NCBI GenBank assembly: GCA_902610995.1
Contig: CACLXU010000001.1
Coordinates: forward strand, 47,207-111,206
Reading direction: 5' to 3'
Source of the DNA: an uncultured SAR86 cluster bacterium
Lineage (GTDB): Bacteria > Pseudomonadota > Gammaproteobacteria > Magnimaribacterales > TMED112
Length of the DNA stretch: 64,000 nucleotides
Shown here in pieces: positions 5,936 through 22,723 of this stretch. The notes below the pieces were generated by a model that saw nothing but the letters and a program-made list of their open reading frames with translations, made no database searches and was not told the origin of the DNA. Position 1 is the stretch's first letter; each line of letters starts with the position of its first letter. Position numbers and translations under genes: made by a program.

Positions 5936-6787
5936 CTAATCAATTACTGCTCGCCCTTTTAATTTCTCCCAGTCCTTTTCAGGCCTTACTTCTAAATTTG
6001 TTTTCCATGCACCCTTAACAACATTTAAGTCAAGATTATTTTTTTCTGCAAAGTTAATTAATGCTTGAATATCTTTTGGAAAACAACTGCCTCCAAAGCC
6101 CAATTTACCATCGTGTCCTGGAACATTTGTATGTGAACTGCCTACCCTTCCATCTCTAATAAATCCTTCAATAACTTTTTCCCAATCAGCATCGATAGAA
6201 TCTGATATAAGTTTCATTTCATTGAGGAAGGATACTTTAGTTGCAAAATAAATATTGCAAACATATTTTATAAGCTCTGCAGTTTGAAAATTAGTTTCAA
6301 TTATTGCTATAGACTCACCAAATCTATCTTTGTATAAATCCGCAACTTCTGATGTATCTTTATCTTTGCCTCCTAAGATATATCTAGTTTGTGACAAGAA
6401 ATCAAATGTTGCAGATCTCTCTGTTAGAAATTCAGGATTAAATACAATCCTTAATTTCGGAAATTTATTTTGAATATCTTCACAAGTTCCTGGAACTACT
6501 GTTGATCGAACTAAAACTATTGGACTGTTATCCTTTAATGCATCCTCTATTTCAGAAATACATGCATAAAGAATGTCTAAGCTGATGCTGCCATCTTTAT
6601 TGGAGGGAGTTGGAACTGAAACAAAAATAAAATCACTTTTATTAACAACATCATCTAAACTATCAACGGATTTAAGAGGATCTTTGTCATAAACAAGCAC
6701 ATTCGCGTTATACCCTACTGCAGGTGAGAAACCATGAGCAACTGCGCTTCCGACAAAACCCTTCCCTACAACACCTATATTTTTCAT
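5936..6787 (-). CDS. UDP-glucose/GDP-mannose dehydrogenase family protein, short form lacking the C-terminal domain
   Basis: GKGFVG, VSVPTP, RSTVVPG, FNPEFL, AELIKY, GFGGSCFPKD (catalytic Cys); only 283 aa. Confidence 0.85.
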   Translation of the reverse strand: MKNIGVVGKGFVGSAVAHGFSPAVGYNANVLVYDKDPLKSVDSLDDVVNKSDFIFVSVPTPSNKDGSISLDILYACISEIEDALKDNSPIVLVRSTVVPGTCEDIQNKFPKLRIVFNPEFLTERSATFDFLSQTRYILGGKDKDTSEVADLYKDRFGESIAIIETNFQTAELIKYVCNIYFATKVSFLNEMKLISDSIDADWEKVIEGFIRDGRVGSSHTNVPGHDGKLGFGGSCFPKDIQALINFAEKNNLDLNVVKGAWKTNLEVRPEKDWEKLKGRAVID

Positions 6788-6982: not shown

Positions 6983-7963
6983 TTGAGTAAAAAAATTGTA
7001 ATTACAGGGGGATGTGGTTTTATTGGTTCACATCTTGTCGAGCTTTTATCCGAAAGCAATGAAGTTATTGCATTCGATAGATATAACAGTGAATCAGACC
7101 ATTACTGGCTGACTAATTCAAAATTTAAAGACAGGTTTAGTGTTGTTCTTGGAGATATTAGAGACTATGACTCTGTTCAAAGTGTTTTGAAAGGTGCAGA
7201 TGTTGTGATTCACATGGCAGCACTAATTGGTATTCCTTATTCATATGTTTCACCATTAGCCTACATCAGAACAAATGTTGAAGGGACTTATAATGTCTTG
7301 CAAGCATCTAAAGAGCTTGAACTAGATCAGGTAATGATTACAAGCACGAGCGAAACTTATGGTACTGCACAGTACGTACCAATGGATGAAGATCATCCGA
7401 AAGTTGGTCAGTCACCCTATAGTGCAAGCAAAATATCTGCTGACCAAATTGCGATAAGTTACTATAGATCATTTGATTTACCAGTCACAATAGTAAGGCC
7501 TTTCAATACATATGGTCCTAGACAATCCTCGAGAGCAGTCATACCAAATATTGTTTCACAGATATTAACCAATAATGGGGAGGTAAATTTAGGAAACATC
7601 TCTCCAACTAGAGATTTTACCTTTGTTGAAGATACATGTAGTGCATTTGAATCAATCATTGGATGTAACAAGTTAATTGGTGAAGAAGTAAATATTGGCA
7701 CTAATTCAGAAATTAGCATAAGAGATCTTGTAGAAGAAATTTCAAATATTATCGGCATCGAAGCAAAAATAGTTGAGGATGATCAGAGAATGAGAGCTGA
7801 GAAATCAGAAGTTGATAGACTTGTTTGCAAAAATGAAAAGCTTCTTGCCTGTACAAGCTGGAAACCGAAACATAGTCTTGAACAAGGATTAATAAAGACA
7901 ATTGATTGGATAAAAAAAGTTGATTCAGATAAATTAAAAAATATGAGTCAGTACAATGTCTAA
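6983..7963 (+). CDS. legB: NDP-GlcNAc 4,6-dehydratase, LegB type
   Basis: GGCGFIG, HMAALIGIPYSY, TSTSETYG, QSPYSASK, RPFNTYGPRQS. Confidence 0.85.
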   Translation: MSKKIVITGGCGFIGSHLVELLSESNEVIAFDRYNSESDHYWLTNSKFKDRFSVVLGDIRDYDSVQSVLKGADVVIHMAALIGIPYSYVSPLAYIRTNVEGTYNVLQASKELELDQVMITSTSETYGTAQYVPMDEDHPKVGQSPYSASKISADQIAISYYRSFDLPVTIVRPFNTYGPRQSSRAVIPNIVSQILTNNGEVNLGNISPTRDFTFVEDTCSAFESIIGCNKLIGEEVNIGTNSEISIRDLVEEISNIIGIEAKIVEDDQRMRAEKSEVDRLVCKNEKLLACTSWKPKHSLEQGLIKTIDWIKKVDSDKLKNMSQYNV

Positions 7964-9086
7964 AGTAATTCCGTTATCAGAACCAAACTTTTCTAAAGAA
8001 GATCGAAAACTGTTATTAGAATCATTTGATTCGACTTTTATATCTTCCTCAGGAAAATTTTTAGATAAATTTGAAGATAAAATTGCAAAATTGACAAGAT
8101 CTGAATGTTGCACCTTAACCACTAATGGTACTTCCGCTATACACTTAGGTTTAAAAGCATTAGGCGTAAAGGAGGGTGATGAGGTAATTTGTCCTTCATT
8201 GACCTTCATTGCATCCATCAATCCAATTTTATATTTAAATGCTAGCCCAATCTTCATGGATTCAGATGAATATTTTTGTATGGATCTTGAAAAACTTAAA
8301 CATTTCTTAACCAAACATACTTATACAAACAAAATGGGAACATTTAATAAAATCACAAAAAAAAGAATATCTTCATTGATCCTTGTGCATGTCTGGGGAA
8401 ATGCTGGAAAAGCTATTGAGATTGTGAAGGAGTGTAAAAAAAGAAAAATTAAAGTGCTCGAGGATGCAACAGAATCTTTAGGAACAAAAATTAAAAAAGA
8501 AAATTTGTATACAGGAACCATCGGCGATGTTGGCTGTTATTCCTTCAATGGGAATAAAATTATCACTGCTGGCGGGGGTGGTGCTGTTGTTTCAAAAAAT
8601 AAAAATTTAATCAATAAAATTAAATTTTGGTCAACCCAATCAAAGAGTGATCCATTCAACTATATACATAATGAGCTAGGGTTTAATTATAGGCTTAGTA
8701 ACATGCAAGCAGCTATAGGCTTATCACAACTTAAAAGATTGAGAAAAATAATTAATCAAAAGAAGGAGTTACGTAAATATACAGAAAAGGCCCTCCACTC
8801 AAAAGGATATAAGCTGTATGAACTGCCTCCGTACTCTGATAATAACTGCTGGCTTTTTGTCATGAAATGTAAATCCTCTGAAAGAATGAAGCTTCTAAAT
8901 AAACTCAATTCAAACAATGTGATGGCAAGGCCTGTTTGGGGTTTGTGCCATAAACAAAGATATACAAAACAATTTCAAAGTTTTGAAATAGAGAAATCTG
9001 AAAAACTTTTAAAAGAGTCAATATGCTTACCATCATCTTCTGGGCTGACAAAAGCTCAAATAAACTTTTATGTTAATTTGCTTTAA
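7956..9086 (+). CDS. legC: PLP-dependent DegT/LegC-type sugar aminotransferase
   Basis: NGTSAIHLGL, EDATESLG, SFNGNKIITAGGGG, GFNYRLSN. Confidence 0.85.
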   Translation: MSKVIPLSEPNFSKEDRKLLLESFDSTFISSSGKFLDKFEDKIAKLTRSECCTLTTNGTSAIHLGLKALGVKEGDEVICPSLTFIASINPILYLNASPIFMDSDEYFCMDLEKLKHFLTKHTYTNKMGTFNKITKKRISSLILVHVWGNAGKAIEIVKECKKRKIKVLEDATESLGTKIKKENLYTGTIGDVGCYSFNGNKIITAGGGGAVVSKNKNLINKIKFWSTQSKSDPFNYIHNELGFNYRLSNMQAAIGLSQLKRLRKIINQKKELRKYTEKALHSKGYKLYELPPYSDNNCWLFVMKCKSSERMKLLNKLNSNNVMARPVWGLCHKQRYTKQFQSFEIEKSEKLLKESICLPSSSGLTKAQINFYVNLL

Positions 9087-9813
9087 TGTCTTTTATTGCA
9101 TCCTGAAAGTAAGACTTTAAAGCTGCTGAATCATTATAGAAGGCAATAAAATCATAACCAATATCTGAAAGAATTTTTGCATATTCAACATCCTTTGCCA
9201 TGCTTCCTACCATTACACCATTAGCTTGAATAATTTCCTTTGTATCTTTCAAAAGCTTTAGTATTTTTGGATCTGTAAGATTGTCAACCATCCCTATAGT
9301 CTTTGCTAAATCAAATAAGCCAATGTAAATCAAATCTATTCCTTGAACTTTTGAAATTTCTGCAATGTTTTTTATTCCCTCTTCGCCTTCAACTAAGAGT
9401 CCAAGAAATTGATTTTCATTTGCATGAGAAAGGGAATCACTAAGATTTTGATCTGAAAAATTATGTTGTCTTGTGTATGGTGATAGCCCTCTACTGCCTT
9501 CGGGGGGATATTTTACAGATTCAACTACTTTCTTGGCGTCATTTGCTGAAGAAATATGAGGTACCATTAGTGCATTTGATCCTGCTTCTAAGATTCTAAG
9601 CAAGTGCTGTTTATCATCATTAGATGACCGAATTATAGCTTGCTTACCTCTGGCCTCACACGCGCGGACCATATTTTCCATTCCTGCAAAACTTACAGAG
9701 CTATGTTCTTCATCAATGATGACAAAATCTAGATCAGTACTACATATTACATCTACGGCATTCACAGAGTTAAGTGAACACCATGTACCAAATCTTTGTT
9801 TAAAGTTACCCAT
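9073..9813 (-). CDS. HpcH/HpaI class II pyruvate aldolase family
   Basis: DFVIIDEEHS, LMVPHI, KYPPEGSRG, LVEG..G, IYIGLFDL. Confidence 0.88.
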   Translation of the reverse strand: MGNFKQRFGTWCSLNSVNAVDVICSTDLDFVIIDEEHSSVSFAGMENMVRACEARGKQAIIRSSNDDKQHLLRILEAGSNALMVPHISSANDAKKVVESVKYPPEGSRGLSPYTRQHNFSDQNLSDSLSHANENQFLGLLVEGEEGIKNIAEISKVQGIDLIYIGLFDLAKTIGMVDNLTDPKILKLLKDTKEIIQANGVMVGSMAKDVEYAKILSDIGYDFIAFYNDSAALKSYFQDAIKDIKAN

Positions 9814-10572
9814 TTATTTGTACCCTGACAGAAAAATATCGTCATTTTTCATTAACTTTTCTGCTTCCATTCTATCATTTTCATTATCAACTGACTTTGT
9901 TTTAAACTTTGTCTCAACCATCCTTACTTTAAAACCATGCTGAATTGCTCGATTCATTTCAATTGATTCTTGTAATTCAAGTGTTGTTGGGTGTAATTCA
10001 TTATTGAATTTCTTCATAAACCCCCACTGAAATGGCATAACACACACTTGCTTAAAAAATTTAGTTCGAACTTCTTCGTGGTCTTGAGAGGGTATTGGAG
10101 CTCTAGACATATAAAGGGCATTCATATCATTATCACAAACAACTTTAATTTCTGCTGGATCATTAAGATCTTCGATATCGGCCTCGTAACATCCATTAGA
10201 GACAAATACTTCTCCAGAAACAACTGGTTCCAGAACACTGTCTATCATTTCTGGCCTAATAAGAGGCTCATCGCCTTGTAAAACAACAACAATGTCGTCA
10301 TCGTTAAGATTTAGACTTTCTGCCGCCTCTGCCACTCTAAGACCTGGCCTAGTAATATTTTTATTCGTATCAATATAATTTCCTTCGAACCGAGCTACTT
10401 CAGTCTGGATTTCTTTATCGCACCCGGCGACAAATATTTCTGATGCAACTTGAGATAAGCACGATCTCTTATAACAATGCTCAATCATTGTATGATCAAG
10501 AATTTTGCATAAAGGCTTTCCAGGGAATCTTGTTGAACCCATTCTTGCTGGAATGCCTATTACTACTCTCAT
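9814..10572 (-). CDS. KdsB-like CMP-ulosonic acid cytidylyltransferase
   Basis: IPARMGSTRFPGKPL, LQGDEPL, ALYMSRAPIP, LELQESIEMNRAI, SVD. Confidence 0.88.
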   Translation of the reverse strand: MRVVIGIPARMGSTRFPGKPLCKILDHTMIEHCYKRSCLSQVASEIFVAGCDKEIQTEVARFEGNYIDTNKNITRPGLRVAEAAESLNLNDDDIVVVLQGDEPLIRPEMIDSVLEPVVSGEVFVSNGCYEADIEDLNDPAEIKVVCDNDMNALYMSRAPIPSQDHEEVRTKFFKQVCVMPFQWGFMKKFNNELHPTTLELQESIEMNRAIQHGFKVRMVETKFKTKSVDNENDRMEAEKLMKNDDIFLSGYK

Positions 10573-11321
10573 TATGTATCAGTAAATCTTTTTAGGTCTT
10601 CAAGAATATCTATATTCTGTTCATTAGCAAGTTTAATCGAGCTTTCATTAACATTGCTCCATGCTGCTAAAAAACAATTAAAACCAGCATTTTTTGGACC
10701 CAGAAGATGAGCAATATTATCATCAATAAAGACTATCTCCTCTTTCAAAATTTTCTTTGATTCAATTATTCTGTTTAGAGCTTCAAGTTTTGTCTTTATC
10801 TCGAATTGATCAACTACAAGATCAGGATCAATTTCAAGATCATAGTGTTTGAGAATTTTCATTACACTATCTTTGTCTTTAAGAGTTGCAATCATTAGTC
10901 TTTCACGATCCAAATTCTCCCTTAGAAAGTCAATTACCCACTCGTAAACTGTATGAAGATCCAACCAATTTGAAAAATTAAATTCTTGCAGTTCATTTCT
11001 TGCTTTATAAAAATGAGGCTTATATGTCTCTGATTCAACAAGAAATGTTTTGTGAACCTCATCAAAAACATTTTGTGTAATTGTTTCAAGATTCATCTTT
11101 GATCTCAATATCTGATATAGGGTATAGTACTGAGAGCCCCCTTTTACAAAAGGTCTTAAGGCGCTGAAGCTGTGTATTAGTTCTTCCGAAAAATCCGATA
11201 AATAATATTTGAAATTTGAATTTCCATCTAATTTTTGCATCGCATTTGATGAGCAAACTAAACACTCATTGGTGCTATCACATACAACTCCATCAAAATC
11301 AAAAACGTAGTAATTATTCAT
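10572..11321 (-). CDS. HAD-superfamily hydrolase/phosphatase
   Basis: Motif I FDFDGVV; motif IV FIDD. Confidence 0.82.
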   Translation of the reverse strand: MNNYYVFDFDGVVCDSTNECLVCSSNAMQKLDGNSNFKYYLSDFSEELIHSFSALRPFVKGGSQYYTLYQILRSKMNLETITQNVFDEVHKTFLVESETYKPHFYKARNELQEFNFSNWLDLHTVYEWVIDFLRENLDRERLMIATLKDKDSVMKILKHYDLEIDPDLVVDQFEIKTKLEALNRIIESKKILKEEIVFIDDNIAHLLGPKNAGFNCFLAAWSNVNESSIKLANEQNIDILEDLKRFTDT

Positions 11322-12091
11322 TTGGTAAAACGATTACTAAGTATTGGTAACCCTTCTATTTCTATTCTATATTCGTCTCCATGCTCAAGAAACTGTCTAT
11401 CCCTAACCCTTTTTGGTGCTCCTGTAAGAATTAAATCCCCAGGGTTAAGCGTCATCCATTTAGATAATTCAAATATTATCTTCGATGGGCTCCAGATGAA
11501 TTCAGATGTGTTCCCATCTCTTAGAAGCTGATCATTATGGTAGGCTCTAATGAACTTATTTTTATGGTCATAAGTGGTATCAATGTATTCACCTACAGGA
11601 CAAAAATTATCTGCACTCTTTGATCTTGCTAAATGGTGATCCCTATTAGAGATATTGTCACATGAAACATCATTACATGGCAGGAAGCCAAGAATTGAAT
11701 CAGATACATTTGGTTCCTCTTTTTTTTGACTCTTGATGGTCTTCTTTATAACAAATCCTAATTCTGATTCTCCCCAACATTTAATGTTAAAAGGCAAATG
11801 AATAGAACTGCCATTAGTAGTTATTGTATTAGAGCCCTTAAGAAAGATCACAGGTTCTAGCATTTCATTGCTAACCCCAGTTGCACCTGAAAAATTTGTG
11901 GCTATGCAGATGATATTTCTTGGCGATACCGGGGGCAAAATTCTAACTTCTTTTAAATCACGAGGCTTATCAATTAATTCAATTTTATCAGCATATGGTG
12001 AACTGGTGATTTGATGGAATTTTTCACCCTCAAGTTTTCCATAGCAAATTTTTTCAGGGTTATTTTTTTCTTCAAATCTTATGAGTTTCAT
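11318..12091 (-). CDS. Fumarylacetoacetate hydrolase (FAH) family protein
   Basis: PVIFLK, GESELGFVI, CNDVS, RSKS..NFCPVG, TLNPGDLILTG. Confidence 0.88.
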   Translation of the reverse strand: MKLIRFEEKNNPEKICYGKLEGEKFHQITSSPYADKIELIDKPRDLKEVRILPPVSPRNIICIATNFSGATGVSNEMLEPVIFLKGSNTITTNGSSIHLPFNIKCWGESELGFVIKKTIKSQKKEEPNVSDSILGFLPCNDVSCDNISNRDHHLARSKSADNFCPVGEYIDTTYDHKNKFIRAYHNDQLLRDGNTSEFIWSPSKIIFELSKWMTLNPGDLILTGAPKRVRDRQFLEHGDEYRIEIEGLPILSNRFTK

Positions 12092-12114
12092 TATATTTTA
12101 AAAAATAAATTAAA

Positions 12115-12984
12115 TTATTCTTTATCAGAAATTCCTTGGATAACTTGAAGCAAACCGTCTCCAAGGTCAGTAAAGTTTTTCAAAACTATTCTCTTCGCAC
12201 TATTTATCTTGTAAGAATATGGGGTAATTCCATAGTGCAATTGGTTATTGTCTTTTTCTTTGTATGAAATTTTAATATCACCCCCTAAAATTTCATTTAT
12301 CATCACTAACAGGTCTTTAACTTTTATTTGCTGATTTCCAGAAATAAATACGTGTTTATTTTTGTAATCCTCAGAGAGTGTTTCATAGGTCATTTCTGCA
12401 GCATCATTTATAAAAACGTACTCTCTTATTTCTTCGCCATCACCACTTCGTTCAATTGATTTGGTTGATAGCGCTGATTCAATAATGCTAGATATTGAAT
12501 TGAATTCATTTGCATTTGGACCATAAAGTGATCCGTATCTTAAAATAGTGAAGTCAAGCCCATACCTTCTTGAGTATTCTTCAATAATTTTTTCACAGCA
12601 TTGTTTTGACACTCCATAAAAGCTTCCATGCTTGCTGTTTACATAAACTGAACTAGAGAAGAAAAAACGTTTTAAGTTTAAATCTTTAACTTTCTTCAGC
12701 AGGTTGATTGTTCCTTGAATATTGTTTTCAAGCGTTTCCTCTGGATTTTCTTCAGAGTAGTCAATATCAGCTTGTGCGGCAAAGTGAAGAACAATTTCAA
12801 CATTCTTTAAAGCCTGCTCTAGGCTCTTTTCATCAAAAAGATCACCTTTTACAAATGATTGATTATCAAGAAGGTTTTGTGGCTTACACTTATCAAAAAT
12901 TATTATTTCGTGGCCATTCTTGGAAAAAAAATCAGAAATGCTTTTCCCCAAAAAACCACTACCACCTGTTACTAATATTCTCAT
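12115..12984 (-). CDS. NAD-dependent epimerase/dehydratase (extended SDR)
   Basis: TGGSGFLG, HFAA, FSSSVYV, YGVSK, LRYGSLYGP. Confidence 0.9.
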   Translation of the reverse strand: MRILVTGGSGFLGKSISDFFSKNGHEIIIFDKCKPQNLLDNQSFVKGDLFDEKSLEQALKNVEIVLHFAAQADIDYSEENPEETLENNIQGTINLLKKVKDLNLKRFFFSSSVYVNSKHGSFYGVSKQCCEKIIEEYSRRYGLDFTILRYGSLYGPNANEFNSISSIIESALSTKSIERSGDGEEIREYVFINDAAEMTYETLSEDYKNKHVFISGNQQIKVKDLLVMINEILGGDIKISYKEKDNNQLHYGITPYSYKINSAKRIVLKNFTDLGDGLLQVIQGISDKE

Positions 12985-13898
12985 AAAGATTTCCTTAAGT
13001 TTTCTAATGCTTCAGTTTCTAAATCTTTTCTCACATTAGATGTATACCCCCCAATGTGTGGAGTAAGTATAACATTCTCTAAGCTGGTGAATTCACCTTT
13101 GTAAGGCTCACTTTTAAATACATCCAAACATGCTCCAGCAATTGCATTATTTTTGAGCGCTTCAAGAAGGGCAAGCTCATCAACATTATTCCCTCTAGAC
13201 GTATTAATTAATAAGGTTTTTGTATTCATTAAAGAAATCTGATCGCTTGAAATTAAGTGTTTATCGGAGTTTTTGCTATTAGCATGAATAGAAATAATTT
13301 CCGCATTTGAACACAAATAATCCATATCGCAGTATTCGATAGAATACTTCTTTGCAAAATCTTCATCTTTACACAAATCACATGCTAAGAGTTCGAAGTT
13401 AAATCCCGAAGTGATCTCTACAAGTCTTTTACCAATTTTTCCCAAACCTATAATCCCTAGTGTTTTTCCATTTATGGTTTCCCCCATTTTCCTTTTCCAT
13501 AGATTTTCTTTGAAATCTTTGTGATGACTAGGTATGTTCCTATAGAAGGACAGTATCTGTGTGATTACAAGTTCTGCAACTGAATATGATAGGTCAGTTT
13601 TGGTAGAAAGTACGGCAATATTTGCCTCTTGGCAAAAATCTAAATCAATATTATCTATGCCAATACCAACCCTTGAAATTACCTTCAAATTTTTTGCATG
13701 ACCTAAGATGTCTTTGGAATATTGTTCCGTACCCGCAATGATTCCCTCTACATCAACTATTAATTTTGATAACTCTTCACTAGTTAACTTTCTTCCAGTT
13801 TGATTAAATACGCACTCATACGAATCTTGTAACTTGTCCAAAATTGTAGGATCTAGTTCTCCAAATGATGCTGTAGCAATAAGAATTTTTTGTTTCAT
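12981..13898 (-). CDS. D-isomer-specific 2-hydroxyacid dehydrogenase (SerA-like, no ACT domain)
   Basis: SRVGIGIDNID, GIIGLGKIG, INTSRG, LDVF.SEP, LTPHIGG. Confidence 0.9.
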   Translation of the reverse strand: MKQKILIATASFGELDPTILDKLQDSYECVFNQTGRKLTSEELSKLIVDVEGIIAGTEQYSKDILGHAKNLKVISRVGIGIDNIDLDFCQEANIAVLSTKTDLSYSVAELVITQILSFYRNIPSHHKDFKENLWKRKMGETINGKTLGIIGLGKIGKRLVEITSGFNFELLACDLCKDEDFAKKYSIEYCDMDYLCSNAEIISIHANSKNSDKHLISSDQISLMNTKTLLINTSRGNNVDELALLEALKNNAIAGACLDVFKSEPYKGEFTSLENVILTPHIGGYTSNVRKDLETEALENLRKSL

Positions 13899-14929
13899 AA
13901 TTTGAAATCTAAATAACGTGAGACATAATTTTCAACTAACCTTTCAACGCGTTTCATCATATTTGATTTTAGATATCCACGCATCTCATTGAGTTCATCT
14001 TTTATTTGATCTTTTGCAGAAATATGTTTTTCTGGTTGCCTCCATCCATATGCCTGAAAAATGCTACTTTTTGGGGCATCATCTAAGGATTTTCTTGGCA
14101 CTTTTTGTCTTCTCATTTCTCTTAATACATTGTCAGACAGCTCTACATCTAATCTGGATGAAACCTTTTGGATGTACTTTTTAGGATTAAAAACAAGCAT
14201 TTCAAAAGGGACTTCAATTATCTGATATTTTTTGTTTTCAACTGCTTTATTACCCTCCTCTATCCACTCTTCTAACATAATAATTGCTCTTTCATATTCA
14301 TTTGCATTGGCGTATTCATCAATTCTTTCCAGAATAAAATGAGGAACCATTTCACCGTTTATATCATTACACATCATTCCATTTCTTGATTCATTACCCC
14401 ATCTTTTACTCCATCGAGCTAAGTGATTAAGCATATACATGCTTGAAGGGCATCTCATAAGTCTGCAAAAAATTAATCTGTTTCCAAGAGCCTTATGAAT
14501 TGGCTCAATGTGAGAGGTAATTCCATGACTCATGAAATGTAGAACCCTCTTCTCATTTATAAACTTTTCAAAAAGCTCCAGATCATTTGAGTTTAAAACC
14601 CGCTTTAGATATTCACTTTTTTTTGGGAATTTAAAGACACTTGAATGATCAAAATGCCTAAAATTTTGATCTCTCAATAAAGCCTGGCAATAAATTTCGT
14701 TATCAAAGCAACAATTTAAAAGACTAACAGCAGTATTTAAATCGATATTTTTATGTGCATACAGACCAGATACTTGCTCAACTAATGGCCTATGTACCCA
14801 CATTTCTACTTTATCTAAGCTTGATACAAGTTGGCAAAATAACGTCTTTCCACCTCCAACAAAACCATCAACAAAGATAATTTTATTTTCTAAATAAGAT
14901 TTTCGAGTTAATTGTCCCTGTGGTGACAT
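13895..14929 (-). CDS. Sulfotransferase-like P-loop protein
   Basis: IIFVDGFVGGGKTL resembles a 5'-PSB loop; RLMRCP and VPFEMLVFNP resemble sulfotransferase motifs; likely start is the ATG at 14929. Confidence 0.5.
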   Translation of the reverse strand: MSPQGQLTRKSYLENKIIFVDGFVGGGKTLFCQLVSSLDKVEMWVHRPLVEQVSGLYAHKNIDLNTAVSLLNCCFDNEIYCQALLRDQNFRHFDHSSVFKFPKKSEYLKRVLNSNDLELFEKFINEKRVLHFMSHGITSHIEPIHKALGNRLIFCRLMRCPSSMYMLNHLARWSKRWGNESRNGMMCNDINGEMVPHFILERIDEYANANEYERAIIMLEEWIEEGNKAVENKKYQIIEVPFEMLVFNPKKYIQKVSSRLDVELSDNVLREMRRQKVPRKSLDDAPKSSIFQAYGWRQPEKHISAKDQIKDELNEMRGYLKSNMMKRVERLVENYVSRYLDFKL

Positions 14930-14930
14930 A

Positions 14931-15740
14931 TTATTTTTCAATTTTAAAAGATACAAATCTGTCTTTTGTTTTCTTTGCCATTCCTTTTTGTATCATCTGT
15001 TTCCAGTCACTTTGAAAATAATCGAAATAAATATCATCAGTCATAAGTTTTTCAAAATCGTTTTCAATGCGCTCAACTTTCTTAAATTTCTCTGAAAGAA
15101 ATTGTTGTATTTCCTCGTGGTATGGTTTGCAAACATTGCTTATTGGCTGTTCAATCGACGGAAGCTTAAGTTTTGTCCTAAGCATATTTATATAAGAAAA
15201 ATTTTCCTCTTTATTAGTATAGTTAGCATCGTCCAAAACAACGTAAAAAATATCAGAAGCAGAATCTGAATAAGCATTGATTTCAGCAATTAAGTGGTCA
15301 AGTGTATGTAAACTATCAAAAAAACCTAAAGTCGGCTTAATTTTCATTTCACTAAGAACTGCTATGCCTAGGTGATTGTTTGTGCTGTCAAACGCAATAA
15401 ACTCCCAATAATCATTGATATTTGCATTTAGCGGTTTACAAATAGCCTCATTAATAACACTCTTTAAAAAGCTTCCTTTTGAGGGATTTGTGTCCCATGA
15501 AACAACTTTACAGTCATTCAAAATTGCGTGAAACACTAAAGCAATAGAGCTTGCACCACAGCCAGTTTCAATTAGTGCAGTTTTCTTTAAATTATTGACT
15601 TTTAAGATCCTGTAAAGTGCTAAGCACTCACTATCCGGAATTCCATTTATCCACCTCGGAAGCATCCTCTTTGTAAAAAGAACAAACTCCTCATCATTTT
15701 TAATAATTTCATCCCTTGTACCAAAGTGAAAGTCAAACAT
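14931..15740 (-). CDS. Class I SAM-dependent methyltransferase-like protein
   Basis: LIETGCGASS, VSWDTN, FFDSLHT, VVLDDA motifs. Confidence 0.7.
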   Translation of the reverse strand: MFDFHFGTRDEIIKNDEEFVLFTKRMLPRWINGIPDSECLALYRILKVNNLKKTALIETGCGASSIALVFHAILNDCKVVSWDTNPSKGSFLKSVINEAICKPLNANINDYWEFIAFDSTNNHLGIAVLSEMKIKPTLGFFDSLHTLDHLIAEINAYSDSASDIFYVVLDDANYTNKEENFSYINMLRTKLKLPSIEQPISNVCKPYHEEIQQFLSEKFKKVERIENDFEKLMTDDIYFDYFQSDWKQMIQKGMAKKTKDRFVSFKIEK

Positions 15741-15822: not shown

Positions 15823-16506
15823 ATGATGCCTATGGATATTTCTGAGATTTTAGAAAAAATTGATATTTGGGATGCAGAAAACGTCTTTCATTTAAAATCT
15901 GATCCATCAAGATTGAAAAAGATTATTGCTCACTATGAGCTCTTCAAAAAAATACAAAATGTTGAGGGTGATTTTCTTGAGTTTGGTGTGTTTAAGGGAG
16001 CATCTTTCCTTAGATTTGCCACATTCTCAGAAATATTTGAAAATCAAAATAGACAATTTTTTGGATTTGATTCTTTTGAAAAATTTCCAAGAGACGACAT
16101 AAAGCTTGATTCAGACAATGAGTTTATATCACGTTTTGAAGAAGCATCCGGAGATCCTATAGGTAAAGAGAAATTAGAAGAATTAATTAATAATAAACAG
16201 TTCACTACACCAGAAAACATTAAATTGATTAAAGGAAATGTATTTGAAACTGTTCCCGCTTTTCTTGAAAATAATCAAAATATTAAATTAGCTTGCATTC
16301 ATCTTGATATGGACGTTTATGAACCAACTAAATATTGCTTGGATCTGCTTTTTCCTTTTTTACAGGAAAACGGAATTATTATATGTGACGATTATAATCA
16401 AGTAGATGGGGCTACAAAAGCTTTTGATGAATTCTCAGAGAAACATGGAAAAAATATAAGCAAATTAGAGTTCAGTAAAACCCCATATTTCATTGAGAAT
16501 AACTAG
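15823..16506 (+). CDS. TylF/MycF-family sugar O-methyltransferase
   Basis: GDFLEFGVFKGAS, GFDSFE.FP, HLDMDVYEPT, IICDDY. Confidence 0.88.
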   Translation: MMPMDISEILEKIDIWDAENVFHLKSDPSRLKKIIAHYELFKKIQNVEGDFLEFGVFKGASFLRFATFSEIFENQNRQFFGFDSFEKFPRDDIKLDSDNEFISRFEEASGDPIGKEKLEELINNKQFTTPENIKLIKGNVFETVPAFLENNQNIKLACIHLDMDVYEPTKYCLDLLFPFLQENGIIICDDYNQVDGATKAFDEFSEKHGKNISKLEFSKTPYFIENN

Positions 16507-16519
16507 CCTTGTATTACCT

Positions 16520-16525
16520 TATAAT
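16520..16525 (+). promoter_or_regulatory. -10 hexamer TATAAT 6 nt upstream of the neuD ATG; candidate leaderless promoter
   Basis: TATAAT-TAAATA-ATG; no SD. Confidence 0.5.
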
Positions 16526-16531
16526 TAAATA

Positions 16532-17134
16532 ATGAGTGGAAAAAGTATTCTAATTACTGGTAATGGCGGTCACGCTGTTTCCTGTAGAGAAGTAATTGAA
16601 TCAGTTGAAGATCTAGTTTTTTCTGGCTTTGTCACTAAGGATGGGACTGAAAATGGGCCAGAAGTTATTGGTACAGATCAAGATCTTGAATCTATTTTCC
16701 AAAATACTAAGCTCGCATGTGTAGGTATGGGGCAAATTAAAACAAATGAGCACAGAGTAAAAAGCTTCAATAAATTAAAGCAAATTGGATATACTCTCCC
16801 AATTATTATAGCCTCAACGGCTTACGTTGCAGATTCAGCTAAAATTCATGAAGGGACAATAATTATGCATAGAGCTTTTGTTAATTCTCAAACAATCATT
16901 GGAATTAATTCAATTATTAATACTGGAGCAATTGTTGAGCACGGGGCAAACGTTGGAAATCATTGTCATGTTGCAACAAAAGTTACAATTAATGGAGATG
17001 CTATCATTGGAGATAATTCATTTATTGGCAGTGGTGCAACTGTGTTACAAGGTGTAAATATCGGTGAAAATTGTATCGTAGGTGCAGGAGTTATAGTTAA
17101 GAAAGACTTAGAGAGAGGTTCAATATTAAAATGA
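16532..17134 (+). CDS. neuD: NeuD/PglD-family sugar acetyltransferase (probable N-acetyltransferase of the legionaminic acid route)
   Basis: GNGGHA N-terminal domain followed by hexapeptide repeats (IINTGAIVEHG...IGSGATV). Confidence 0.85.
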   Translation: MSGKSILITGNGGHAVSCREVIESVEDLVFSGFVTKDGTENGPEVIGTDQDLESIFQNTKLACVGMGQIKTNEHRVKSFNKLKQIGYTLPIIIASTAYVADSAKIHEGTIIMHRAFVNSQTIIGINSIINTGAIVEHGANVGNHCHVATKVTINGDAIIGDNSFIGSGATVLQGVNIGENCIVGAGVIVKKDLERGSILK

Positions 17135-18138
17135 GTACTCTAATAATTGCTGAAGTTGGTGTTAATCATAATGGCCACTTAAATGAAGCGTTTAAGCTTA
17201 TCAAAGAGGCAAAATCGTGTGGGGCTGACTTCGTAAAATTTCAAATATTTAAATCTGAAAACCTTGTTGACGAACAAGCAGAAAAAGCACCATACCAACA
17301 AAAGAATATGACAGATACATCAAACTCACAGTTTGAAATGCTTAAAAAACTTGAATTGTCGTTTGAGGATTTCGTTAAAATTAAAGAGGAATGTGAAATA
17401 AATAATATAAGATTTATGGCCTCAGCCTTTGATCTTGAATCTTTAAATTTCCTTCTAAATCTTAATTGCGATTATGTGAAAATTCCCTCAGGAGAGATTG
17501 GCAATGTTCCTTATCTAAGAGAATTTAAAAATTGCACCTCGAAGATTATTTTATCTACAGGGATGTCAACTATTCAGGATATAGAGTTTGCATTGGAAAT
17601 GCTTAATTCAGTTGGGGTTGATATAAAGAATATCTCACTTCTTCATTGTACATCGAATTATCCATGTGATCTTGAAGAGATAAATATGAATTCAATGGTC
17701 ACAATTCGCAAAAGGTTTGGCCTTAATGTGGGTTATTCTGATCATAGCAACGATAATGCTGTTTCAAATACTGCTGTTGCAATGGGTGCTTCAATAATCG
17801 AAAAGCATTTCACATTAGACAATCAATTAGAGGGCCCTGACCACAAAGCAAGCCTAAACGTGGAAGACTTTAAAAAATTTGTGAAGAGTATAAGAAAAGT
17901 TGAAAAAATTCTTGGTTCTAGCGCTAAAAAACCAACTAATTCCGAAATGGAAACAAAGAGATATGTTGAGAAAAAAATATTTGCATCAAAGCAAATTTTA
18001 AAAGGAGAAAAATTTTCAGACTTAAATATGACTACTAAAAGATCAAAATCTGGAATAAATTCTAGAGATTGGGATTTAGTTTGCTCAAAAGAAGCGTCAA
18101 AAGATTTTCAAGTAGGTGATTTAATTGAAATCGAATAA
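17131..18138 (+). CDS. neuB: Nonulosonic acid synthase (NeuB/LegI)
   Basis: IIAEVGVNHNG, ADFVKFQ, KIPSGE, LHCTSNYP, GYSDHS, IEKHFTLD, GPDH. Confidence 0.93.
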   Translation: MSTLIIAEVGVNHNGHLNEAFKLIKEAKSCGADFVKFQIFKSENLVDEQAEKAPYQQKNMTDTSNSQFEMLKKLELSFEDFVKIKEECEINNIRFMASAFDLESLNFLLNLNCDYVKIPSGEIGNVPYLREFKNCTSKIILSTGMSTIQDIEFALEMLNSVGVDIKNISLLHCTSNYPCDLEEINMNSMVTIRKRFGLNVGYSDHSNDNAVSNTAVAMGASIIEKHFTLDNQLEGPDHKASLNVEDFKKFVKSIRKVEKILGSSAKKPTNSEMETKRYVEKKIFASKQILKGEKFSDLNMTTKRSKSGINSRDWDLVCSKEASKDFQVGDLIEIE

Positions 18139-19288
18139 AAGAAAATTAGTTTTAGTGGTTTCTTCAAATAGAGCAGATTATGGTCTTTTAGAGCCTTTGA
18201 TGAAGCAACTTATTTCTGAGAAAGAAATAAATTTTGGATTAATTGTTACAGGATCACATTTGTTAAAAAAGTTTGGGTTTACCTTCAATGATATTGACCC
18301 GAAAATTCAAAGAAAAGCACTTGCAAAAATCAAAGTACTTGAATCTACTTCTAAAACAACAATGATAAAAAATACTGGATATCTAATTGAAAAATTCTCA
18401 TCTATCTTCAAAAGACTAAAGCCAGACTTAGTAATAATACTTGGAGACAGATATGAAATATTTTCGGCAGCTACTTCATGTCATCTTCTTCAAATCCCAT
18501 TGACGCATATTCATGGAGGGGAAGTAACATCAGGCGCATTAGACGATGGTTTTAGACATTCAATCACAAAATTTTCTGATTTACACTTTACTTCATCCGT
18601 TGCACACAGAAAGCGAGTAATTCAACTTGGAGAACAACCAAGAAAAGTCTTCAATGTAGGTCCTATGGTTCTTGATAATTTTTTGAATCTTAAATTTTTG
18701 TCTAAGACTGCATTACGAAAAAAATTAAAAATTTCAAGAGCAAAAAAAGATTTCATCGTTTGCTTTCATCCAGAGACAATAGGAAATAAAAATAATTTAG
18801 AGACACTTAATAACTTAATTATAAAAATTAAAGAATATAAAGACTATAACTTCATTTTTACAGCCTCAAATAACGATCCAGGAGGAGAAAAATTAAATTC
18901 AGCTATAAAGAAAAATGTAAAAATATATGACAATTTTTATTTCTATGATTCTCTTGGAAGTCAATTGTACTATTCGCTGCTTCATTGTTGTGATGGTCTT
19001 ATTGGCAATTCTTCAAGTGGCATTATTGAAAGCCCTTTGTTTCAAAAATTCTCACTCAACATTGGAAGCAGGCAAGAAGGAAGAGAAAAAACAAGATATA
19101 CGATTGATTGCGGAATAAGTGAAGCTCAGATTCAGAGGGGGCTTAAAAATCTATTCAGTAAACCTAATAAAGTAATCAAATCAAAAATAAAATATGAAAG
19201 TCCATCAAAATTAATTTTAAATAAACTTAAAGAAAAGCTTTTTGGAAAGCTCGAAAAAAATAAGTCATTCCACGACCTTAAAACTTAA
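18125..19288 (+). CDS. neuC: Hydrolysing NDP-sugar 2-epimerase (NeuC/LegG)
   Basis: NRADYGL, LGDRYE, HIHGGE, RHSITK, FHPET, IGNSSSGIIE. Confidence 0.93.
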   Translation: MKSNKRKLVLVVSSNRADYGLLEPLMKQLISEKEINFGLIVTGSHLLKKFGFTFNDIDPKIQRKALAKIKVLESTSKTTMIKNTGYLIEKFSSIFKRLKPDLVIILGDRYEIFSAATSCHLLQIPLTHIHGGEVTSGALDDGFRHSITKFSDLHFTSSVAHRKRVIQLGEQPRKVFNVGPMVLDNFLNLKFLSKTALRKKLKISRAKKDFIVCFHPETIGNKNNLETLNNLIIKIKEYKDYNFIFTASNNDPGGEKLNSAIKKNVKIYDNFYFYDSLGSQLYYSLLHCCDGLIGNSSSGIIESPLFQKFSLNIGSRQEGREKTRYTIDCGISEAQIQRGLKNLFSKPNKVIKSKIKYESPSKLILNKLKEKLFGKLEKNKSFHDLKT

Positions 19289-19301
19289 TGTAAAAAAATA
19301 A

Positions 19302-19307
19302 TATACT
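19302..19307 (+). promoter_or_regulatory. -10 hexamer TATACT 6 nt upstream of ATG; candidate leaderless promoter
   Basis: TATACT-TAAACT-ATG; no SD. Confidence 0.5.
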
Positions 19308-19313
19308 TAAACT

Positions 19314-20357
19314 ATGAAATTTGTAGGGAAAACTATAACAACCGATACCACTATCTATGATGCTTTTAAAGTTCGAGCAGAGGCTGGGGTATCTCTAGTT
19401 GTTGTAGATGAAGAATTTAAATTACTGGGAACTCTGAGTGACGGCGATCTTCGTAAGGCGATTCTTACAAAGAATAATTTATCAGACAGCATAAGCAAAA
19501 TTTATAATTCAAGCCCAATTGTTATTGATGAAAATAAATATTCAAAAAACTTTGCAAAAAATCAGCTCATTAAAAATAAGATTGATATGGTTCCAGTTAT
19601 AGATCAAAGTAGAAAGCTAATAAATATTGTTTACCTAACAGACTATCTCTCAGATCCAGTAAAAGAAAAAATTAAAATCCCATTAATAGTTATGGCAGGC
19701 GGTAAAGGAACTCGTCTTGCTCCTTTTACTGATATTCTTCCAAAACCATTAATTCCTGTAAATGGTAAAACAGTCATTGAAAGGATAATCGGAGGATTTA
19801 CTGAATATGGCATTGAAGAAATTTCATTAGTTGTAAACTTCAAATCTGAAATATTGAAAGCGTACTTCTCAGAACTTGAACCATCCTATAAAGTTAATTT
19901 TATCAATGAAAAAGAGCCTCTAGGTACTATTGGTGGTGTAAACTTAGTAGATCTAAACAATCATAAAACTTTCTTTTTAACCAATTGCGATATTTTAATT
20001 AATATTGACTATTCAGATTTATATCATCACCATAAAAACTCAAATAATGATCTAACTTTAGTAGCTTCTACGAAACAATTTACAAACCCCTATGGGGTTT
20101 GCGACTTAGATGAAAGTGGAAATTTAAAAAATATAATCGAAAAACCATCAAGTGAAAGCCTTGTAAATACTGGTTTATATGTTATCAATTCATCAATTCT
20201 AAATCTTATTCCAAACAACAAAGCATTCAATGCGACAGATTTAATTGAAGAATTACTCAAAGGCAAAAAAAGAGTTGGAATTTATCCTATAGATGAAACT
20301 CAATGGTCAGATGTGGGACAATGGGATGAGTTCAGGAAAACAATTGAAAAAATCTAA
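19314..20357 (+). CDS. CBS-domain sugar-phosphate nucleotidyltransferase (PtmE/LgaF type)
   Basis: CBS pair (GTLSDGDLRK) followed by MAGGKGTRLAPFT..LPKPL, EPLGTIG, EKP. Confidence 0.88.
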   Translation: MKFVGKTITTDTTIYDAFKVRAEAGVSLVVVDEEFKLLGTLSDGDLRKAILTKNNLSDSISKIYNSSPIVIDENKYSKNFAKNQLIKNKIDMVPVIDQSRKLINIVYLTDYLSDPVKEKIKIPLIVMAGGKGTRLAPFTDILPKPLIPVNGKTVIERIIGGFTEYGIEEISLVVNFKSEILKAYFSELEPSYKVNFINEKEPLGTIGGVNLVDLNNHKTFFLTNCDILINIDYSDLYHHHKNSNNDLTLVASTKQFTNPYGVCDLDESGNLKNIIEKPSSESLVNTGLYVINSSILNLIPNNKAFNATDLIEELLKGKKRVGIYPIDETQWSDVGQWDEFRKTIEKI

Positions 20358-21252
20358 CCTGAAAGTTGTAATCATTGGCTTTGGCTCAATAGGCAGCAAA
20401 CATCACTCTTATTTAAAGAACAGACCAGAGGTTGCCAAAATTGCAATTCTCTCTAGCAGATCTAAAGATGAGCTTCCTGAGATGAAACTTGAAAAATTTG
20501 AAGATGTAAAAAAATTTGATCCAGATATTTTATATATATGTAATCAAACCTCGAAGCATGAATTAGAGTTAAGCAGAATTGAAAAAAATTTTTCTAAAAA
20601 AATTATTATCATTGAGAAGCCTCTCTCTAACAATTACATAAACTTAGATTTATATAAGCTAAACAAGTATTTTGTTGGATACAATCTTAGATATCATCCT
20701 TTAATTGACTTTTTAAAGAATAAAGTTGAGCTATCTGGCTTTGTCAAAGCTGAAATTTCAGTTCAAACAGATCTAAGGAAATGGAGAAAAACAGATTACA
20801 AATCTAGTTATAGTGCAAAATCTAATGAAGGTGGAGGTGTTGCTCTAGATTTAAGTCATGAAGTTGATTATTGCAGATATTTATTTGGAGACCTTGATAA
20901 AATATTTTCAGAGAAGAGAAAAATTTCGAACTTAGAAATTGATTCAGAGGATCAATTTAGTTTAATTGCACAGATCCCTAATGAAGAGAGTTTATTGAAT
21001 TTTAATTTTTCTTATTTTGCTCAAAAAGAAGAAAGAAGTATTAAGATTTTTTTTAATGATAAATTACTTCACTGTGATCTAATAAATTCATCAATTATTG
21101 AAATAAAAAATGGAGAAGAAAAATTGATTAAACTTGATGCCTACGTCCAAGAGCGTACTTTAGAAGAACAGTTTATTGACATTATTTCAAATGATGCACC
21201 TAAAGCAGCTACAATTACTGATGGACAGAAAGTTTTGGAACTAGTTTTATGA
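20344..21252 (+). CDS. Gfo/Idh/MocA oxidoreductase (PtmF/ElaA-like)
   Basis: IIGFGSIG, IEKPL, VGYNLRYHP, GGGVALDLSHEVD; likely start is the TTG at 20344. Confidence 0.85.
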   Translation: MKKSNLKVVIIGFGSIGSKHHSYLKNRPEVAKIAILSSRSKDELPEMKLEKFEDVKKFDPDILYICNQTSKHELELSRIEKNFSKKIIIIEKPLSNNYINLDLYKLNKYFVGYNLRYHPLIDFLKNKVELSGFVKAEISVQTDLRKWRKTDYKSSYSAKSNEGGGVALDLSHEVDYCRYLFGDLDKIFSEKRKISNLEIDSEDQFSLIAQIPNEESLLNFNFSYFAQKEERSIKIFFNDKLLHCDLINSSIIEIKNGEEKLIKLDAYVQERTLEEQFIDIISNDAPKAATITDGQKVLELVL

Positions 21253-21948
21253 AGAATAAGCAGATTCTATGTACTATTTGTGCAAGAGGTGGCTCAAAGG
21301 GCCTGCCTAATAAAAACTTATTAAAGATTGGTGATAAAAGCCTGATTGGACATACATTGTCTCAAGCTAAAGCAATTGATGCTATAGATTGCATAATTGT
21401 TTCATCAGATTCTAATGAGATTCTTAAAGAGGGCGAAATCTATGCCGCAGATATTCTTTTGCAGAGAAGCGCCAAACTTGCTTCTGACGATGCAGGAAAA
21501 ATAGATGCAATAATTGATTGTCTTAATCATGCTGAGAGTAATCTTAATAAGCATTTTGATTATGTTATAGATCTTGATGTTACATCACCTCTTAGAAACC
21601 TAATTGATATTGAAAATTGCCTTGAATTTACTAAAGATCAGGGGTTTAAAAATCTTATAACTGTCACAAATTCAAAAAAAAAATCCATACTTTAACCAGA
21701 TAGAGATTACAAATGAAGGTCCACAACTTGTAAAAAGTGGGCATAATATCAAAGGCAGGCAATCTGCGCCAAAGGTTTATGACATGAATGCCTCAATATA
21801 CGTTTGGTCTAGAGATTTTTTAATAAATGAAAAAACTCTATTTTCCAGAGATACTATTGTTTATGATATGCCTGAGGAAAGATCATTAGATATTGATAAT
21901 GAGTTAGATTTTAAAATTGTGAAACACCTAATAGAAAATGAGCTTTAA
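21249..21948 (+). pseudogene. neuA: CMP-nonulosonic acid synthetase (NeuA/LegF/PtmB), frameshifted at an A10 tract
   Basis: ICARGGSKGLPNKN and LDVTSPLR in the first frame, which stops at 21695. Removing one A from 21674-21683 gives SKKNPYFNQ...RQSAPKVYDMNASIY...SLDIDNELDF, a 232-aa protein ending at TAA 21948. Confidence 0.9.
21674..21683 (+). repeat. A10 homopolymer at the neuA frameshift
   Basis: ttc-aaaaaaaaaa-tcc, counted directly. Confidence 0.9.
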
Positions 21949-22723
21949 AGTAAATACAAGTCTTGATGGCAAAAAAGTTATCTTGCTGGGAGCTGGCCAG
22001 ATTGGCGCTAAAGTTTTGGACTATATTAATGAATTTGATACAGAAGTGTTGATTATTGATATAGATAAGCCGGGGAATATTAAAGAGGACAACCAATTTG
22101 AGCACTTTGATTGTACAAAATTAGACAAAATTGCATCTACATTTGAAAACGTGATACTAGAGTTCGGAGTGCCTGATTTTTTTATAAATGCTTCATATCC
22201 AAAAAATTCTAATTGGGCTAATTGTGATTTTGATAATCAAAACTCCCTAGATACGATTGAAAATATAAACTTCCATTTAGGTTCGTATACTGTTTTATCA
22301 AAGATCGTTTGTGAAAAAATGAAATCAGCAGATGTAAGTGGATCAGTTGTTCTTTTAAATTCAATTTATGGAATTGTTGCTCAAGACGAAGAATTATATG
22401 CAGAAGAAAAGATAAATATGAGTGTGCCTTATCCAGTTATTAAATCAGGGATTGGTGGACTTACAAGACAGCTGAGCTCTTATTATGGAAAATATGGTAT
22501 AAGAATAAATTCAATTTGTTCTGGGGGCATTAAGGGCAAAGTTTCTGGTTCAGAAGCAGATATGGATAACAGTTTTGCTGAGAAATACCTTAAAAAGGTC
22601 CCTCTTAGAAGGATGGCAACAACTGATGATATTGCAAATATGGTATGTTTTCTAGGATCAGATGCATCGAGTTATATCACCGGTCAAAACATTCCAGTTG
22701 ACGGTGGGTATAGTGTTATATGA
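21938..22723 (+). CDS. SDR oxidoreductase (PtmA/ElaC-like)
   Basis: GAGQIG, INASYP, NSIYG, YPVIK, IRINSI, SYITGQNIPVDGG. Confidence 0.85.
   Translation: MSFKVNTSLDGKKVILLGAGQIGAKVLDYINEFDTEVLIIDIDKPGNIKEDNQFEHFDCTKLDKIASTFENVILEFGVPDFFINASYPKNSNWANCDFDNQNSLDTIENINFHLGSYTVLSKIVCEKMKSADVSGSVVLLNSIYGIVAQDEELYAEEKINMSVPYPVIKSGIGGLTRQLSSYYGKYGIRINSICSGGIKGKVSGSEADMDNSFAEKYLKKVPLRRMATTDDIANMVCFLGSDASSYITGQNIPVDGGYSVI

Follow-up and report, generated by a model that had tools for sequence, protein, structure and literature searches.

An inverted eight-gene cassette

The window analysed here is a stretch of 64,000 nucleotides from an uncultured SAR86 cluster bacterium (assembly GCA_902610995.1, contig CACLXU010000001.1, positions 47,207 to 111,206), and the element under study is a cassette of eight coupled minus-strand open reading frames (ORFs) at 9073-15740. 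In order, the cassette encodes a methyltransferase, a sulfotransferase, a SerA-like dehydrogenase, an extended SDR, a FAH-family protein, a HAD phosphatase, a KdsB-like cytidylyltransferase and an HpcH/HpaI-family aldolase (Table 1). A sequence-only reading had described these eight genes as a candidate pathway to a sugar acid activated with cytidine monophosphate (CMP), and their coordinates, strand, order and tight coupling were all borne out when the ORFs were checked. The methyltransferase and sulfotransferase genes overlap by 26 nt from a TTG start and nearly abut if a Met nine codons later is used. Onward from there, the SerA-like gene overlaps its neighbour on either side by 4 nt, a 23-nt gap separates SDR and FAH, FAH and HAD overlap by 4 nt, HAD and the KdsB-like gene by 1 nt, and the aldolase gene follows with no gap. 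It converges on the 3' end of legC with the 14-nt overlap (9073-9086) already described. Pfam confirmed six of the families (HpcH aldolase, CTP_transf_3, HAD, FAH, extended SDR and 2-hydroxyacid dehydrogenase), and none of the cassette proteins passed an NCBIfam equivalog cut-off.

Table 1. The cassette and its flanks, with the role proposed for each gene (positions are those of the window).
Feature	Positions	Strand	Family or match	Proposed role or remark
legB-legC-like genes, left flank	6983..9086	+	best NCBIfam TIGR04180 and TIGR04181, both just below cut-off	
HpcH/HpaI-family class II aldolase	9073..9813	-	PF03328	
KdsB-like cytidylyltransferase	9814..10572	-	PF02348	forms its own clade; retains the CTP site, with an altered sugar pocket by alignment
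HAD phosphatase	10572..11321	-	PF13419	proposed removal of the terminal phosphate before CMP activation
FAH-family protein	11318..12091	-	PF01557	putative accessory; metal ligands without lid His
Extended SDR	12115..12984	-	PF01370	best pathway marker; aldose-phosphate 1-dehydrogenase proposed, with CMP-sugar epimerase as the rival role
D-2-hydroxyacid dehydrogenase, SerA-like, not SerA	12981..13898	-	PF02826/PF00389	proposed C2 oxidation of an aldonate phosphate
Sulfotransferase-fold protein	13895..14956	-	fold; no Pfam match itself	putative accessory tailoring
Class I S-adenosylmethionine (SAM)-dependent O-methyltransferase, unnamed family	14931..15740	-	weak Pfam PF13578	putative accessory tailoring
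Legionaminic-type cluster, right flank	15823..23937	+	Pfam, NCBIfam	

The cassette had been described as inserted into the leg cluster. This view gains support from four other members of the genus with a legC match, because legC directly precedes neuD in all of them; the TylF-like gene is also missing from that junction. The same arrangement as in the window is found in a close congener (L005), at 59-83% identity. An assembly artefact is ruled out by contigs that cross both cassette ends: the legC/aldolase junction was spanned by single contigs in at least three of four independent seawater DNA runs and the methyltransferase/TylF junction in at least two of the four. Fourteen marine DNA runs, drawn from 8 studies and possibly including the source run, contained at least 0.83 of the sampled words. 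A foreign base composition was considered and rejected, as the GC content of the cassette (31-35%) makes no contrast with its surroundings. A promoter scan of the gap between the methyltransferase and TylF-like genes gave 2 sites against 2.0 expected, none of them on the minus strand. Parts of the cassette were covered by contigs of four metatranscriptome runs (three studies), and such contigs cannot demonstrate transcription.

The KdsB-like cytidylyltransferase and the spread of the module

The KdsB-like protein scored 131.5 bits against TIGR00466, the equivalog model of KdsB, which is below the cut-off of 155.2 bits; it passed the broader subfamily model NF003952 (219.3 versus 193 bits). The residues of the cytidine triphosphate (CTP) site, R10, R15, K19, Q99, D101 and R157, are kept in 56-59 of 59 KdsB-like homologs. 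In alignments the window protein has RPGLR in place of SGT(D/E)R and QVCIM in place of H(V/I)GIY, two motifs which we take to form the pocket of KdsB for 3-deoxy-D-manno-octulosonate (Kdo). These changes are conserved among the homologs (Arg75 in 56/59, Gln175 in 56/59 and Cys177 in 57/59), and, judged by the alignments, the sugar pocket is rewritten relative to that of KdsB. In a tree from a quick search only, 24 of 25 cassette copies grouped together (Shimodaira-Hasegawa-like approximate likelihood ratio test, 89), to the exclusion of six sequences of the housekeeping or KpsU kind.

The source genome (861 kb, 80% complete) carries a canonical kdsB elsewhere, which passes TIGR00466 with 188.3 bits and adjoins lpxK- and murB-like genes (named from their translations). 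Outside the cassette it also has waaA and a second DAHP_synth_1-family gene, taken as kdsA. The sequence-only reading had named a role as the genome's only housekeeping CMP-Kdo synthetase as a danger to its proposal, and the separate kdsB, together with the presumed kdsA and waaA, rules that role out. Its statement that no KdsA or KdsD is present holds for the cassette and probably fails genome-wide, where the presumed kdsA lies elsewhere (kdsD was not searched for).

Alignment search with the KdsB-like protein found 37 loci in GTDB genomes. Most of the best 26 of the 37, which share at least 40% identity, are glycan loci that also contain aldolase, SDR, SerA-like and HAD genes, so that the co-occurrence in other glycan loci on which the sequence-only reading had staked itself was found many times over. 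The loci come from Proteobacteria, Leptospira, Nitrospina, Desulfobacterota, Chloroflexota and Chlorobium, and around the module, in O-antigen, capsule and flagellar loci, lie genes for glycosyl-, methyl-, acetyl- and sulfotransferases. On a plasmid of the cultured Acuticoccus sp. I52.16.1 the module has five genes, and its transferase is of the NeuA type. Because this form lacks the KdsB-like type, the SDR is the better marker of the module. Among plasmids and phages, the KdsB-like protein had no match above 36% identity, Chlorobium-type DNA had none, and the SDR had one, in Acuticoccus. The SDR was found in 5/401 genomes of an alphaproteobacterial sample, 1/401 of the order of Aestuariibacter, 22/351 of Desulfobacterota and 16/41 of a Leptospira genus (that of L007); these counts include the genome at the centre of each sample, and in the large samples six candidates per genome were scored.

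Of 135 SDR loci, 63 had 6 kb or more of sequence to either side of the SDR, and these 63 loci served for gene counts. A CMP-transferase is present in 56 and a HAD gene also in 56, the SerA-like gene in 35 and the aldolase gene in 32. The lactonase Pgl occurs in 17 loci and a cyclase-family hydrolase in 21, and the two never occur together. Three distinct groups of cytidylyltransferase serve the last step, namely the KdsB-like, the NeuA-type and a third group.

These observations bear on the view that no new sugar is made, the KdsB-like protein being a spare CMP-Kdo synthetase similar to KpsU and the other genes serving to degrade or salvage sugar acids. The pass under NF003952 and the name kdsB that databases give to the homologs agree with it, as does the fact that Pgl, 2-hydroxyacid dehydrogenases, FAH and HpcH are catabolic families. 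However, the pocket residues are replaced, the tree places the KdsB-like proteins apart from both KdsB and KpsU, two other transferase groups take their place in some loci, and the neighbours are glycan transferases. We regard a spare synthetase as highly improbable. The cassette is very probably a copy of a real, mobile and uncharacterised module making a non-Kdo CMP-ulosonate, and the earlier proposal of a surface-glycan ulosonic acid that is undescribed, not Kdo and probably activated with CMP is to that extent supported.

Three side observations concern relatives of these proteins. A Streptomyces plasmid carries a kdsB-annotated gene that has no glycan genes around it (L043:7971-8714), a cytidylyltransferase-like domain is fused to a SerA-like enzyme (L023:5495-7264), and a 609-aa fusion protein has a C-terminal HpcH domain (L027:2681-4510). 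In addition, one locus has the order aldolase-SDR-KdsB-like-acetyltransferase-HAD directly behind flgG/flgA/flgH-like genes (L166:5613-14500), hinting at flagellin glycosylation.

A candidate oxidative route and the competing readings

The sequence-only reading had assigned the building of the carbon skeleton to the aldolase. The protein is a good family member (83.4 versus 25 bits for PF03328), with the catalytic R62 and the metal ligands E142 and D168 invariant in 17 sequences, and it falls below the equivalog cut-offs of HpaI (143/369 bits), GarL (126/407) and RhmA (99/441). A full-length HpcH aldolase is present in only three of the eight SDR-bearing congeners and is missing from three of five genomes tested in the Leptospira genus, while in both genera SDR, SerA-like enzyme, phosphatase and CMP-transferase all stay. 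The five congeners without it have sulfotransferase, Pgl, SerA-like, HAD, KdsB-like and SDR genes in a row and no aldolase in the genome; they include G009, a single contig of 95% completeness, and G018, whose contig stops within Pgl. The aldolase is dispensable to the module, and the role of skeleton builder is not supported. The aldolase probably alters the sugar before activation, since its presence tracks the type of transferase: all 32 loci with an aldolase have a KdsB-like or NeuA-type transferase, whereas none of the 21 loci with a transferase of the third group has an aldolase. Judged by this pattern, it probably reshapes the skeleton as a secondary tailoring step.

The same association is what one would expect if the aldolase did condense pyruvate with an aldose or aldose phosphate to a 3-deoxy-2-ulosonate, with the HAD phosphatase and the KdsB-like enzyme acting next and the SDR then epimerising the CMP-sugar at C5 to yield a hexulosonate, a heptulosonate or 3-deoxy-lyxo-heptulosaric acid (Dha). 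Moreover, the aldolase gene lies next to or near the KdsB-like gene in almost every locus that the KdsB-like query found. Against such a condensation, Pgl and the SerA-like enzyme would be left without a role, and the five congeners keep the operon without any aldolase. We consider it unlikely on these grounds. Dha has been reported from Rhizobiaceae. No Rhizobiaceae homolog stood among the best 120 named matches, a weak comparison confined to those matches, and Dha, which the sequence-only reading had offered as one product, found no support. The activated form of Dha was not known in 2012, as far as the text available of PMC3355719 goes, and the available part of PMC12168206 adds nothing further on it.

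The reading we prefer, with a probability of roughly 0.58, is that the cassette is a copy of a widespread module that would make a CMP-activated 2-keto sugar acid by oxidation; we infer its reactions, substrates and products from the observed gene content, co-occurrence, replacements, motifs and folds. The SDR would oxidise C1 of an aldose phosphate to the lactone, and Pgl, encoded elsewhere in the source genome, would open the lactone to the aldonate phosphate. The SerA-like enzyme would then oxidise C2 to give the 2-keto-aldonate phosphate; its phosphate would be stripped by the HAD enzyme and CMP attached by the KdsB-like enzyme, in parallel with KdsC and KdsB in their pathway. The predicted product keeps its 3-hydroxyl, unlike Kdo, which could account for the changed pocket of the KdsB-like protein. 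Candidate products are 2-keto-gluconate from glucose 6-phosphate, our default guess for the window, and a heptulosonate from heptose 7-phosphate in copies with a linked GmhA-like isomerase (L010 and L179-L182). Where present, the aldolase might epimerise C3/C4 by a retro-aldol reaction, or it might add pyruvate to the C2 ketone to give a carboxy-branched 3-deoxy acid. The latter idea is based on the top structure match of the aldolase, 4tv5, presumably SbnG, an enzyme that uses a ketone acceptor; a carboxy-branched, Kdo-like acid is possibly what the extra Arg75 binds.

One pattern behind the oxidative reading is the pairing of SDR and Pgl. Pgl hydrolyses aldonolactone phosphates, which are made by oxidation of aldose phosphates at C1. 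Of 30 genomes in the window's own genus, 8 carry the SDR; Pgl is found in the same 8 and in none of the other 22. Pgl lies outside the cassette in the two genomes whose cassette lacks it, one of them the source genome, where the protein passes TIGR01198 and its gene adjoins a purB-like gene away from the cassette. In the Leptospira genus, Pgl occurs in 20 of 41 genomes and adjoins the SDR in 16/16 SDR loci. No zwf was found in the 30 genomes of the window's genus or in five tested genomes of the Leptospira genus, and because zwf is absent the natural partner of Pgl is the SDR or its replacement. Such a replacement is seen in four Pgl loci without SDR, which carry, in this order, Pgl, GmhA-like, aldolase, KdsB-like and Gfo/Idh/MocA oxidoreductase genes, in three of the four an inositol-monophosphatase-like gene, and a SerA-like gene. 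The dehydrogenase and the phosphatase are here each replaced by an unrelated family; the HAD phosphatase, whose DxD motif is invariant, is swapped for an inositol-monophosphatase-family gene in three loci. An epimerase would need no lactonase and would not be swapped for a Gfo/Idh/MocA enzyme, so the epimerase role that the sequence-only reading had suggested for the SDR fits less well than that of an aldose-phosphate 1-dehydrogenase. An extended-SDR glucose-6-phosphate dehydrogenase does exist as a family (NF041293, Azf type). The Ser/Tyr/Lys triad of the SDR is present in 135/135 homologs, a triad common to all extended SDRs; the protein reaches 110 of the 262 bits required by the GalE-type model TIGR01179 and is about 15 residues shorter before YxxxK than its nearest structures.

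The second oxidation rests with the SerA-like enzyme. An aldonate phosphate is a D-2-hydroxy acid, and a 2-hydroxyacid dehydrogenase yields the 2-keto acid that a CMP-ulosonate synthetase requires. The catalytic Arg/Glu/His triad is present in 72/72 homologs, and in the Leptospira genus a cassette-type SerA-like gene lies 17-33 kb off in 5/5 genomes tested. By sequence the enzyme is closest to type III phosphoglycerate dehydrogenases, and this would suit a different scheme, in which it oxidises 3-phosphoglycerate or glycerate and hydroxypyruvate is set free by the HAD enzyme and then linked to an aldose by the aldolase, giving a 3-hydroxy ulosonate such as Ko (glycero-talo-octulosonic acid). 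The HpcH family includes hydroxyketoacid aldolases (6r62), and a product of this kind would also explain the changed pocket. Yet the SerA-like protein scores 201 bits against TIGR01327 (SerA), below the cut-off of 454, and Gly replaces the phosphate-binding Arg of SerA in 72/72 homologs. The Arg-Ser phosphate motif thus lost, in the beta3-alpha3 loop, is given as invariant in SerA in the part available of PMC6303947. Since the aldolase is also dispensable and Pgl would stay unexplained, a scheme through hydroxypyruvate seems very doubtful.

A number of findings weigh against the oxidative route. The SDR scored 45.3 bits against NF041293, where the cut-off is 400 bits; by this score it would not belong to the Azf family, which need not count against an Azf-like function. 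Its nearest solved structures are nucleoside diphosphate-sugar (UDP-hexose) 4-epimerases, a point in favour of pyruvate condensation followed by epimerisation. Eight Desulfobacterota loci, the one checked lying next to flagellar genes, speak the same way: they have aldolase, SDR, KdsB-like and HAD genes, and no SerA-like gene of the cassette type stands within some 9 kb. The five such genomes tested have their best SerA-like match at an unlinked position, with GVD rather than GTE in 4/4 read. Neither lactonase candidate is present in 25 of the 49 SDR loci outside Leptospira, a count that in part rests on weak matches of 44-63 bits and that takes the cyclase as a lactonase by inference; lactones also open unaided. 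In Aestuariibacter (L012) the module is present, the SDR is nowhere in the genome and no replacement was identified. The samples are smaller than they look: the five aldolase-free congeners are near copies, which reduces the own-genus pattern to about three events, and 14 of the 63 SDR loci are from Leptospira and eight from near-alike Desulfobacterota, so that they are not independent. With NAD+ as the oxidant, turning a 2-hydroxy acid into the keto acid is energetically unfavourable and needs to be pulled. Finally, no strain of known glycan structure is tied to the module.

The remaining cassette genes, FAH, O-methyltransferase and sulfotransferase, would be accessory and serve tailoring. 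In the FAH-family protein E108, E110, D141 and K158 are invariant in 12 sequences, and the His of 1gtt, 3rr6 and 3qdf is absent; this lid His is part of the mechanism of FAH-family acylpyruvate hydrolases. FAH occurs in 6/63 SDR loci, always alongside a subtype-A aldolase and HAD. It is unlikely to be the lactonase, since it co-occurs with Pgl or the cyclase. The calls of sulfotransferase and methyltransferase made from the sequence are backed by predicted folds. The methyltransferase model (predicted local distance difference test, pLDDT, 96) matches MeT1, CalS11 and catechol-type O-methyltransferases and has a SAM-binding motif; the enzyme, which is probably metal-dependent, has 552 homologs and its gene occurs in 9/63 SDR loci. 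The best fold matches of the sulfotransferase model (pLDDT 95) are sulfotransferases, the 5'-phosphosulfate loop GxxGxGK is present, and 26 of 125 aligned homologs match PF13469; the gene occurs in 5/63 SDR loci and in the aldolase-free congener operon.

Two variants of the module add enzymes of other kinds. An AroB-related sugar-phosphate cyclase (TIGR04425, above cut-off) lies within the variant with the Gfo/Idh/MocA enzyme (L179:11773-12855), and a Leptospira variant without aldolase has the order Pgl-SDR-HAD-third-group cytidylyltransferase-radical SAM/SPASM (L065, L068-L078), whose radical enzyme may deoxygenate or epimerise the CMP-sugar.

As to the flanks, the right-hand cluster consists of TylF-like methyltransferase, neuD, neuB, neuC, ptmE-, ptmF-, neuA- and ptmA-like and sialyltransferase-like genes. 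The neuA/legF-like CMP-synthetase (21249-21948) has its frame broken by one additional base in an A run at 21674. This base is missing in 4/4 DNA runs and the gene is one frame in the congener G005, so that the split is most likely an assembly error, and the earlier statement that the nonulosonate pathway has its own CMP-synthetase stands. Genes for tRNA-Leu (5837-5923) and tRNA-Cys (26323-26396) bracket the leg cluster and cassette and are possible integration sites. A UDP-glucose-dehydrogenase-like gene (5936-6787, 283 aa) is without the C-terminal domain; this short form is real, because the copy in L005 has equal length at 90% identity. A 485-aa ORF in the glycan locus (24864-26321) has no Pfam or NCBIfam match and is 85% identical in G005. 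Further off, at 36285-38941 and 44312-45625, pheT (646 aa), pheS (239 aa) and rpsA (437 aa) fall short of the model lengths, and the length of pheT is identical in G005.

Relation to known pathways and implications

To our knowledge, the CMP-ulosonate pathways already described all build the acid by a synthase that depends on phosphoenolpyruvate (PEP). The CMP-Kdo pathway (KdsD, KdsA, KdsC and KdsB, or KpsF and KpsU) shares with the module a sugar-acid phosphate, a HAD phosphatase and a PF02348 enzyme with the same CTP site. In contrast, the module has no PEP-dependent synthase, its pocket is rewritten, it has two NAD-dependent oxidoreductases and a lactonase, and the genome retains its own Kdo genes. 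With the CMP-nonulosonate pathways (NeuB/NeuA, Leg and Pse) it has in common the CMP activation within a surface-glycan locus, and in some copies a NeuA-type transferase replaces the KdsB-like one; it differs in having neither NeuB nor a nucleoside diphosphate-sugar precursor, and the adjacent leg cluster is equipped with a synthase and a synthetase of its own. The closest likeness in enzyme types is to Zwf or Azf, Pgl and KguD, which connect glucose 6-phosphate with 2-keto-6-phosphogluconate and serve catabolism in their known uses. In the module a nucleotide sugar would be the end point, and the SDR lies outside the Azf family by score. There is perhaps an even chance that this amounts to a third route to CMP-ulosonates, with neither PEP synthase nor skeleton aldolase, in which oxidation at C1 and C2 would give 3-hydroxy-ulosonates that are then optionally reshaped by aldolase, radical SAM enzyme and methyl-, acetyl- and sulfotransferases.

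In the literature covered, which leaves out most subscription journals, no description of such an oxidative CMP-sugar-acid pathway was found. The available text of a study of Leptospira interrogans Hardjo (bioRxiv 10.1101/771931) lists, in a locus called 'sru' upstream of rfb, a 6-phosphogluconolactonase, a phosphoheptose isomerase, a KdsB-annotated protein, an HpcH aldolase and an inositol monophosphatase. This list matches the variant with the Gfo/Idh/MocA enzyme, and in that text the genes are given annotations and no pathway or product is proposed. The capsule of Escherichia coli K3 contains a 4-deoxy-2-hexulosonic acid, and the K3 gene cluster is unassigned in what is available of PMC10433991; a K3 hexulosonic acid branch is mentioned in the accessible part of bioRxiv 2025.01.29.635457. 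By its name this acid keeps the 3-hydroxyl and is of the product class predicted here. The window DNA had no match in E. coli genomes.

If true, the oxidative route would be a new branch of nucleotide-sugar biosynthesis. It can be put to the test in the six-gene, aldolase-free operon of the congeners and in the five-gene plasmid operon of Acuticoccus sp. I52.16.1. Thousands of proteins in glycan loci now named kdsB, serA or galE would be corrected; for scale, database searches returned 6163 KdsB-family matches at 1e-20, not all of them in the clade, and 2160 SDR matches at 1e-40. Genes merely listed in Leptospira O-antigen regions would receive a testable function. In that case the module would mark out a family of surface sugars that spans marine bacteria, Desulfobacterota and Leptospira, and there would be a route to propose for orphan residues, the K3 hexulosonate among them.

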